From Escherichia coli (lineage in GTDB: Bacteria; Pseudomonadota; Gammaproteobacteria; Enterobacterales; Enterobacteriaceae), in the NCBI RefSeq assembly GCF_016026235.1, contig NZ_CP065613.1: DNA of 64,000 nucleotides; one strand, given 5' to 3'. Numbering within the stretch: the first letter of the stretch is position 1; every line of letters starts with the position of its first letter. The position numbers are program-made. Of this stretch, positions 29,834-32,800 are shown one piece after another.

Positions 29834-32800
29834 TGTTAATGCAAAACTGGAATGAAGATTTGCATACCGCTGGATTTATCATCGACGCCAACCCGCAGTC
29901 AGCGAAAATTGCGACATTAGCTGCCAGCAATAATGGTGTGCTCGCCAATGAGAATGCAGCAAACACCGTCTCGGTCAATGTCGCTGATGAAGGAAGCAAC
30001 CCAATCAATGATCATACCGTCACGTTTGCGGTATTAAGCGGATCGGCAACTTCCTTTAACAATCAAAACACCGCAAAAACGGATGTTAATGGTCTGGCGA
30101 CTTTTGATCTGAAAAGTAGTAAGCAGGAAGACAACACGGTTGAAGTCACCCTTGAAAATGGCGTGAAACAAACGTTAATCGTCAGTTTTGTCGGCGACTC
30201 GAGTACCGCGCAGGTTGATCTGCAGAAGTCGAAAAATGAAGTGGTCGCTGACGGCAATGACAGTGCCACAATGACAGCGACAGTTCGGGATGCAAAAGGC
30301 AACCTGCTCAATGACGTCAAGGTCACCTTCAATGTCAATTCAGCAGCAGCGAAACTGAGCCAAACCGAAGTGAATAGCCACGACGGGATCGCCACAGCTA
30401 CGCTGACCAGTTTGAAAAATGGTGATTATACGGTTACGGCCTCTGTGAGCTCTGGTTCTCAGGCTAATCAACAGGTGAATTTTATCGGTGATCAAAGTAC
30501 TGCTGCCCTGACCCTCAGTGTGCCTTCAGGTGATATCACCGTCACCAACACAGCTCCGCAACATATGACTGCAACCTTGCAGGATAAAAATGGCAACCCA
30601 CTAAAAGATAAAGAAATCACCTTCTCTGTGCCAAACGACGTCGCAAGTCGGTTCTCGATTAGCAACGGCGGAAAAGACATGACGGATAGTAACGGGGTTG
30701 CAATCGCCTCCCTGACCGGCACGTTAGCGGGCACGCATATGATCACGGCTCGTCTGGCTAACAGCAATGTCAGCGATGCACAGCCAATGACGTTTGTGGC
30801 GGATAAAGACAGAGCGGTTGTCGTTCTACAAACATCGAAAGCGGAAATCATTGGGAATGGCGTGGATGAGACGACTCTGACAGCAACAGTGAAAGATCCT
30901 TTTGATAACGCAGTAAAAGATCTACAGGTCACCTTCAGTACCAACCCGGCAGATACTCAACTTAGTCAGAGCAAAAGCAATACTAACGACAGTGGTGTGG
31001 CTGAAGTTACCCTTAAGGGCACGGTTTTGGGTGTTCATACAGCCGAAGCCACACTGCCTAACGGCAACAACGATACGAAGATAGTCAATATTGCGCCCGA
31101 TGCCAGCAACGCGCAGGTCACGCTGAATATCCCCGCTCAACAAGTGGTGACGAATAACAGTGACAGCGTGCAGCTTACGGCGACGGTGAAAGATCCGTCG
31201 AATCATCCGCTGGCGGGGATAACGGTAAACTTCACCATGCCACAGGACGTCGCGGCAAACTTTACCCTTGAAAATAACGGTATTGCCATCACTCAGGCCA
31301 ATGGCGAAGCGCATGTCACCCTCAAAGGTAAAAAAGCGGGCACACATACGGTAACCGCAACGCTGGGTAACAATAATGCCAGCGATGCGCAACCAGTCAC
31401 CTTCGTGGCGGATAAGGACAGCGCAGTTGTCGTTTTGCAAACATCGAAAGCGGAAATCATTGGGAATGGCGTGGATGAGACGACTCTGACGGCAACAGTG
31501 AAAGATCCTTTTGATAACGCAGTAAAAGATCTACAGGTCACCTTCAGTACCAACCCGGCAGATACTCAACTTAGTCAGAGCAAAAGCAATACTAACGACA
31601 GTGGTGTGGCTGAAGTTACCCTTAAGGGCACGGTTTTGGGTGTTCATACAGTCGAAGCCACACTGCTTAACGGCAATGGCTATATGACGACAGTCAATAT
31701 TGCGCCCGATGCCAGCAACGCGCAGGTCACCCTGAACATCCCTGCTCAACAGGTGGTGACGAATAACAGTGACAGCGTGCAGCTTACGGCGATGGTGAAA
31801 GATCCGTCGAATCATCCGGTGGCGGGGATAACGGTAAACTTCACCATGCCACAGGACGTTGCGGCAAACTTTACCCTTGAAAATAACGGTATTGCCATCA
31901 CTCAGGCCAATGGGGAAGCGCATGTCACGCTGAAAGGTAAAAAAGCGGGCACGCATACGGTTACCGCAACGCTGGGTAATAACAATACCAGTGATTCGCA
32001 GCCGGTAACATTTGTGGCGGACAAAACCTCGGCTCAGGTTGTCCTGCAGATGTCAAAAGATGAGATCACAGGTAATGGCGTCGATAACGCAACGCTAACT
32101 GCAACGGTTAAAGATCAGTTCGACAATGAGGTGAATAATCTTCCGGTAACATTCAGCTCAGCCTCTTCAGGACTCACCCTGACCCCGGGAGTAAGTAATA
32201 CCAATGAGTCTGGCATCGCGCAGGCCACTCTCGCAGGCGTTGCCTTTGGTGAGCAGACGGTCACTGCATCACTGGCTAATAATGGTGCCAGCGACAACAA
32301 AACTGTGCATTTTATTGGCGACACAGCGGCGGCAAAAATTATCGAGTTGACGCCTGTCCCAGACAGCATAATCGCCGGTACCCCGCAGAACAGCTCCGGC
32401 AGCGTCATCACCGCCACAGTCGTTGATAATAATGGCTTTCCGGTGAAAGGTGTGACTGTGAACTTCACCAGCAACGCAGCGACAGCCGAAATGACGAACG
32501 GCGGTCAAGCCGTGACGAACGAACAGGGTAAGGCTACCGTCACTTATACCAATACCCGCTCCTCGATAGAATCAGGAGCGAGACCGGATACCGTTGAGGC
32601 CAGTCTGGAAAATGGTAGCTCCACGCTTAGCACATCAATTAATGTCAACGCTGATGCGTCTACGGCACATCTCACCTTGCTACAGGCACTTTTTGATACA
32701 GTCTCCGCAGGCGACACTACCAATCTGTATATTGAGGTGAAGGATAATTACGGCAACGGAGTACCCCAGCAGGAGGTAACCCTCAGAGTATCACCAAGTG

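Follow-up and report, generated by a model that had tools for sequence, protein, structure and literature searches.

The gene yeeJ in this Escherichia coli genome carries two consecutive, closely similar units in the region encoding the stalk of the adhesin, and the locus raises the question of how this pair arose and whether its similarity reflects a recent event. The window analysed here is a 64,000-nucleotide stretch of contig NZ_CP065613.1 (assembly GCF_016026235.1), and coordinates refer to that stretch. The original prediction described a near-identical 609-bp in-frame tandem duplication of recent date. Our analysis favours, with a probability of roughly 0.85, an in-frame tandem duplication of long standing, in which a module of two Big_1 domains, A and B, was doubled in the YeeJ stalk; this doubling marks the common long allele (UMN026-type, 2660 aa).

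The gene and the tRNA gene beside it were placed as follows.

27692..35673, + strand: yeeJ, inverse (type Ve) autotransporter adhesin, long UMN026-type allele (ORF list; alignments to XJ34, O157 and K-12; Pfam).
27304-27379: tRNA-Asn.

The Pfam family IAT_beta (PF11924) matched the frame over its full length (positions 2-279 of 279, ORF residues 127-402, E=1.5e-113). The passenger array gave sixteen Big_1 matches at E≤1e-9 over three segments, together with weaker Big_1 and Invasin_D3 matches. A lectin-like tip was weakly detected (Intimin_C, E=0.024; Invasin_D4, E=1.8e-4), and the Pfam LysM match was also weak (E=0.45). NCBIfam inverse-autotransporter N-terminal models matched with E=0 to 1e-77, and all of the inverse-autotransporter models in that library (IatC, intimin and others) scored under their curated cut-offs. 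Because no NCBIfam model passed, orthology and synteny are the grounds for naming the protein YeeJ; the scores of IatC, intimin and the others below cut-off indicate in turn that it is YeeJ and none of those proteins. A megablast search of 5,426 complete E. coli genomes with an 8.4-kb query recovered yeeJ orthologues that included XJ34 and O157:H7, 98.6% and 97.9% identical over the full query. These orthologues have a CDS of 7983 bp, annotated either as 'inverse autotransporter adhesin-like protein YeeJ' or as 'Ig-like domain-containing protein'; RefSeq names for yeeJ vary between 'Ig-like domain-containing protein' and 'YeeJ'. The order mtfA, tRNA-Asn, yeeJ, GT9, shiA was common to the window, K-12, XJ34 and O157. 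Assignment of the gene to yeeJ was therefore borne out by orthology, synteny, and the combination of IAT_beta with a Big_1 array.

Alignment to the same three genomes revealed a lesion close to the start of the gene.

27790..27791, + strand: 1-bp deletion site in the signal-peptide coding region (CTGCCTG-TAACT; alignment to XJ34, O157 and K-12).

With one base missing after 27790, the canonical frame from the ATG at 27692 ran for 33 codons and stopped; the long ORF restarted at 27742 with an unrelated N-terminus. The longest open frame (27742-35673) encodes 2643 aa; without the deletion the gene would be 7983 bp in length and encode 2660 aa. The deletion was absent from all 2,908 genomes holding this segment, among which the best match was 99.2% identical, the difference being one gap. 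The N-terminal signal peptide and LysM region, which are required to export the protein and to bind peptidoglycan, were thus not intact in the window yeeJ. The gene may be either a fresh pseudogene or the product of a sequence error at 27790, and as written it would be called a frameshifted pseudogene. Given the frameshift, the source strain may not express the duplicated module at all.

The repeat itself was resolved into two units and a diverged neighbour.

30796..31404, + strand: repeat unit 1, 609 bp or 203 codons, with Big_1 domains A1 (30820-31086) and B1 (31114-31407).
31405..32013, + strand: repeat unit 2, 609 bp, with Big_1 domains A2 (31429-31695) and B2 (31723-32016).
32014..32622, + strand: diverged third unit of the same periodicity, with the A3 Big_1 domain at 32038-32316.

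The best-scoring segment at an offset of exactly 609 bp paired 30796-31370 with 31405-31979. It was identical at 548 of 575 bp (95.3%) and began in the yeeJ reading frame. Over the full 609 bp, units 1 and 2 were 93.9% identical; in the phase used earlier (30832-31440 against 31441-32049), the mismatch list at the 609-bp offset held 47 mismatches in 609, or about 92% identity. A perfect run of 160 bp (30883-31042, with its counterpart at 31492-31651) was shared between the copies. The period of 609 bp corresponds to 203 codons and to two Pfam Big_1 domains.

The similarity of the two copies was far above chance. When yeeJ was scanned against itself at the 609-bp offset, identity was 0.86-1.0 at about 30700-31550 and 0.2-0.4, the random background, in the rest of the gene. 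Self-comparison of yeeJ by blastn found no internal repeat exceeding about 77% identity apart from the unit 1/unit 2 pair. At the protein level the two units matched at 191 of 203 residues, versus at most 61 of 203 for any other adjacent 203-aa pair. An independent repeat search recovered the family spaced at 609 bp and, at 62% identity, an old third member. This third unit began with approximately 62-69% nucleotide identity to units 1 and 2 and had 59-61 of 203 residues in common with them. Tandem Repeats Finder, whose maximum period is 500, was silent on the 609-bp repeat. Two antisense ORFs (30492-30944 and 30922-31440) were regarded as arising mechanically from the repeated coding sequence. 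The predicted in-frame tandem duplication, with near-identity over about 550 bp, was essentially right (575 bp at 95.3%), as were its coordinates and the statement that the copies are far more alike than neighbouring Big units.

A repeat of this kind might be produced by the assembly, either through a single unit being written twice or through mis-resolution of a repeat. Short reads can lead to mis-assembly of repeats some 600 bp long, and the 1-bp indel at 27790 hints at possible sequence errors in this record. Duplicates created by error, however, are normally identical, and the unit copies here differed at 37 sites, with 23 synonymous and 12 nonsynonymous codons. The pattern of the differences, with its position-specific ends and shared haplotypes, matched that of real alleles elsewhere. 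XJ34, the closest genome, also has the 7983-bp gene, as do over 1,000 further complete assemblies. We therefore regard an assembly artefact as very unlikely.

The original prediction had read the near-identity of the copies as a sign of recent, lineage-specific, in-frame duplication of one 609-bp unit, with little time having passed since. The 95.3% identity over 575 bp and the perfect 160-bp run favour such an event when set against the neighbouring domains, but the distribution of the module argues for a much older one. The long-specific module was present in about 1,250 of the 5,426 complete E. coli genomes, with an estimated 94% or so of carriers having two units, and the true unit-unit junction was found at an identity of at least 90% in 1,214 genomes. 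The two-unit layout, seen in about 1,200 complete genomes, also occurred in O157:H7, O55:H7 and RMDEC465, a very divergent allele whose copies were 83.4% identical. From there, copy identity within a strain ranged up to 95.9% in MB53; the window stood at 93.9% over 609 bp.

Units were extracted from 12 alleles and compared by position. Between strains, mean identity was 93.1% among first units and 94.0% among second units, versus 89.7% between first and second units. Inside one strain, units 1 and 2 averaged 90.3%, so that positional orthologues in different strains were more alike than the two copies in the same gene. Unit 1 of the window had its nearest counterparts in the first units of XJ34 and MB53, and window unit 2 was 99.5% identical to unit 2 of XJ34; similarly, unit 2 of O157 was 99.7% identical to that of rl0044. 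The 5' 34 bp and 3' 34 bp of the units kept position-specific variants common across strains, and the 37 differing sites were comparable with the divergence seen between strains. The copies did not cluster by strain, nor was the layout missing from related strains. Since first units group with first units and second units with second units across strains, the duplication is, judging from these groupings, older than the sampled allelic diversity. The claim of recency thus did not hold, and a recent lineage-specific duplication appears very unlikely. One genome, 14EC033, matched the junction at 100% and proved to have a divergent allele overall (93.7%); it was set aside as not being a close relative of the window.

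The high identity of the copies in the window is better accounted for by the state of unit 1. In most strains, unit 1 carried a dense divergent block at approximately 30911-30999, comprising about 40 substitutions, that was missing from unit 2. A query with the O157 unit 1 block matched at 95% or more in 1,222 of 1,254 long-allele genomes (about 97%), and 24 genomes had a best match of only 60-80%. The window, together with XJ34 and MB53 (two of the 12 other sampled alleles), belonged to the minority without the divergent block, having unit-2-type sequence there in unit 1. Of the ten other sampled alleles with two or three units, nine had copies that were 83-91% identical, the exception being MB53 at the 95.9% given above. 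From block prevalence, the high copy identity of the window is a minority state among long alleles (about 2-3%).

30883..31042, + strand: inferred gene-conversion tract, 160 bp (variable-site table, painting, perfect-run lengths, block prevalence).

Within this tract, unit 1 of the window matched its own unit 2, and not unit 1 of XJ34, at nine consecutive informative sites between 30885 and 31017. A run of nine unit-2-type sites had a permutation p of 0.002 when the window was painted against XJ34 unit 1 and window unit 2. MB53 had the alternative haplotype in both copies, and XJ34 was mixed. These patterns suggest that the unit 1 block was most likely replaced by unit-2 sequence through intragenic gene conversion, a form of concerted evolution between the units. 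The unit-2-type sequence at this place raises copy identity to about 94-95%. The direction, from unit 2 into unit 1, and the preference for conversion over allelic recombination with another donor are inferred from about 13 alleles and parsimony. The predicted near-identity is therefore real and yet fails as an indicator of age, because it stems from a homogenised tract in unit 1 where nearly all other long alleles have kept the divergent block.

The old duplication must also be reconciled with the shorter gene of K-12. A long/short dimorphism of yeeJ was already published in 2017 by Martinez-Gil et al. (Sci Rep 7:11326; PMC5595812), who described two variants, MG1655-type and UMN026-type. In that paper, yeeJ-UMN026 exceeds the MG1655 gene by 906 bp, which encode three additional Big domains of repeated sequence. 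The UMN026-type was reported there in 11 of the complete genomes analysed, and in 8 of 26 and 17 of 44 yeeJ-positive strains of two collections. The window carries this fragment that MG1655 lacks.

30900..31805, + strand: segment absent from the K-12 MG1655 allele, 906 bp, equal to 1.5 units and three Big domains (blastn and junction alignment).

By blastn against the window, K-12 yeeJ aligned to 27692-30899 and 31795-35673, leaving exactly 906 bp without a match. The K-12 CDS is 7077 bp (2358 aa), and nucleotide identity outside the indel was 96-98%. The prediction that the window gene is longer than the 2358-aa K-12 allele was accordingly correct, except for the size of the step, which at 906 bp (302 aa, 1.5 units) exceeds a single 609-bp unit.

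The 906-bp segment was bounded by an 11-bp direct microhomology, GTGAAAGATCC, encoding VKDP and located at 30889-30899 in A1 and 31795-31805 in B2. Junction alignment showed that K-12 carries one chimeric A/B Big_1 domain joined exactly at GTGAAAGATCC. Such a chimeric domain at the microhomology is the signature of a deletion, and the K-12 short form would most simply be a deletion derivative formed between the two 11-bp sites. It may have arisen by slippage or illegitimate recombination in a longer ancestor, which could equally have had one unit (297-bp deletion) or two units (906-bp deletion). Under the opposite polarity, the short form would be ancestral and the long form would have been generated by insertion or duplication of the 906-bp fragment. 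The window segment 30905-31190, which spans the C-terminal half of an A-type and the N-terminal part of a B-type domain, had no megablast counterpart in K-12-type genomes; it was found in 1,279 genomes, compared with approximately 2,880 that bear yeeJ. K-12-type genomes thus lack the source sequence that a duplication into the long form would need. Together with the join at the exact 11-bp microhomology, which points to deletion, this makes an ancestral short form quite improbable.

The number of units was also compared across strains. The long-specific segment occurred at 2,523 places in the 1,279 genomes, with 1-3 places per genome and a median of 2. We estimated about 40 one-unit, 1,180 two-unit and 30 three-unit alleles; these are rough figures, obtained by arithmetic on place counts and junction-bearing genomes, and not a per-genome census. 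No four-unit allele was seen among the 1,279 genomes with the long-specific segment. The unit-unit junction query also matched the junction between the last unit and A3 (about 85%) in every yeeJ, and identity bands were used in place of place counts. S1-KEN-04-A, for example, gave three places in the junction query and has an ordinary 7983-bp two-unit allele.

A CDS of 7983 bp was present in XJ34, O157, MB53, CB8671 and ST2747. Other alleles differed from it by whole units. O157:H7 TR01 had one unit and a CDS of 7374 bp (7983-609), and G1/2 had three units and a CDS of 8592 bp (7983+609). The CDS of F344 was 8613 bp, reflecting three units and a 21-bp difference elsewhere. Painting of these alleles revealed hybrid units. 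The single unit of TR01 was of the O157 unit 1 type up to 30882 and of the unit 2 type from 30891. The middle unit of F344 was of the unit 2 type in its centre and of the unit 1 type from 31371, and the middle unit of G1/2 followed an F344-like overall pattern with extra short switches. Unequal homologous crossing-over that pairs unit 1 with unit 2 would yield, as its reciprocal products, exactly such hybrid units as the painting shows in the shorter and longer alleles, although some one- or three-unit alleles could in principle be assembly collapses or expansions. Comparison of lengths across strains therefore upheld the expectation that the repeats drive recombinational length variation, with natural one- and three-unit alleles carrying hybrid units at the crossover.

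If the invasin rod is a guide, each unit would add two rigid Ig-like domains, or about 7 nm, to the stalk. An added unit should alter the reach of the adhesin and not its binding specificity. A broader reading is that the yeeJ stalk has a four-state length polymorphism of 0.5, 1, 2 and 3 A+B modules (7077, 7374, 7983 and 8592 bp) maintained by unequal crossing-over and intragenic gene conversion, with rare homogenised alleles such as that of the window, which has a perfect 160-bp tract, being more recombinogenic, or 'pre-mutable'. We offer this reading tentatively and consider it possible, though on present evidence doubtful. If it were true, lineages could retune the projection of the adhesin beyond the O-antigen or capsule.

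For the old duplication that we favour, the consequences are more modest. The repeat explains the YeeJ lengths found from strain to strain (2358, 2457, 2660 and 2863 aa). It can also account for wrong sizes or names given to yeeJ by annotation pipelines and in assemblies from short reads. Our additions to the 2017 description are incremental, consisting of the exact 11-bp K-12 deletion junction, the alleles of one and three units that bear signatures of crossing-over, and the conversion mosaicism. They refine the account of a known allele and leave the understanding of the adhesin unchanged; the repeat has little import beyond bookkeeping.

Among known systems, the closest is yeeJ-UMN026 as described by Martinez-Gil et al. 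(PMC5595812), which has the same gene, locus, 906-bp excess and 7983-bp length as the window allele. The window differs from it in its homogenised unit 1 and its private signal-peptide frameshift. In the portions available to us, that paper distinguishes two length classes only, and does not refer to alleles of 7374 or 8592 bp or to microhomology at the breakpoints; its comparison of long and short YeeJ, the only experimental one, found no detectable difference in biofilm phenotype. The yeeJ of MG1655 (2358 aa) is an orthologue with the same domain order that lacks 30900-31805 and has the chimeric A/B domain at GTGAAAGATCC. Intimin, invasin, FdeC, IatC and IatD (Goh et al. 2019, PMC6714894) likewise combine an N-terminal IAT beta-barrel with an array of Big_1/Invasin_D3 domains and a tip resembling a lectin. 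The numbers of Big domains in those proteins differ from that in YeeJ.

Near-identical in-frame repeats of stalk domains are also found in Bap/SasG of Staphylococcus aureus, the streptococcal alpha-C/Rib proteins and UpaH of E. coli, where homologous recombination alters copy number and protein length. The arrays of Bap/SasG, alpha-C/Rib and UpaH usually hold many near-identical copies and vary at high frequency. In contrast, the yeeJ module was present in 1-3 copies with identities of 83-96%, exactly two being the number in about 94% of long alleles. With so few copies and such a predominance of two-unit alleles, the yeeJ module behaves as a mostly stable polymorphism. Variation in UpaH and Ag43 is cited by Martinez-Gil et al. 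(PMC5595812).

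The two tandem 609-bp units of yeeJ differ at 37 positions, and 8 of these fall within 25 bp of the stretch 31043-31082 in unit 1 versus 31652-31691 in unit 2. This cluster changes PNGNNDTKIV to LNGNGYMTTV where the A-type domain ends. Both haplotypes circulate among the unit-2 copies of different strains, and the cluster therefore looks like a segregating mosaic patch. Two antisense open reading frames were also found within the repeat region; most likely they are not genes and arise mechanically from the repeat in the coding strand.

30492-30944 and 30922-31440, - strand: two antisense ORFs, 150-172 aa

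The canonical yeeJ reading frame was interrupted near its start: a single-base deletion in the signal-peptide region ends it after 33 codons.

27692-27800: yeeJ signal-peptide region, with a 1-bp deletion after 27790

Of the 2,908 E. coli genomes carrying that segment, not one has the deletion. It is private to this sequence: either the gene has freshly become a pseudogene or the missing base is an error of sequencing. Among long yeeJ orthologues, RefSeq annotations show many copies broken by IS elements (IS3, IS150, IS421, IS1) or a group II intron. Naming of the long gene in RefSeq was inconsistent, with three names in use: 'Ig-like domain-containing protein', 'inverse autotransporter adhesin-like protein YeeJ' and 'inverse autotransporter beta domain-containing protein'.

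Analysis of the yeeJ flanks revealed a prophage end on one side and a glycosyltransferase gene on the other.

22452-26312: prophage end adjoining tRNA-Ser(cga)
22452-24893: exonuclease ORF, 813 aa, in the prophage end
25155-26195: integrase ORF, 346 aa, in the prophage end
26151-26177: 13-bp unit GAAAATATTCCAA in perfect tandem repeat (x2.1), 3' end of the integrase ORF
26223-26312: tRNA-Ser(cga), next to the prophage end
35935-37050, - strand: glycosyltransferase family 9 gene, downstream of yeeJ

ETEC4070/4079 and O157 strains likewise have the exonuclease, integrase and tRNA-Ser(cga) layout. In the window the integrase ORF is open; several of those genomes have it annotated as frameshifted. 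The 13-bp repeat sits directly ahead of tRNA-Ser and may have some link to the attachment site. The glycosyltransferase gene is an open ORF in the window. Annotation of K-12 lists it as a pseudogene containing an internal stop, and in several strains the gene is cut short by IS1.

A very divergent yeeJ allele was seen in strain RMDEC465.

NZ_CM177019.1, 2178-10166: RMDEC465 yeeJ

Its units are ~88% identical to those of the window and only 83% identical to each other. Upstream of this allele lie UvrD-helicase and exonuclease genes, in place of mtfA and tRNA-Asn. The allele may derive from a divergent Escherichia lineage, and it could aid in dating the yeeJ unit duplication.
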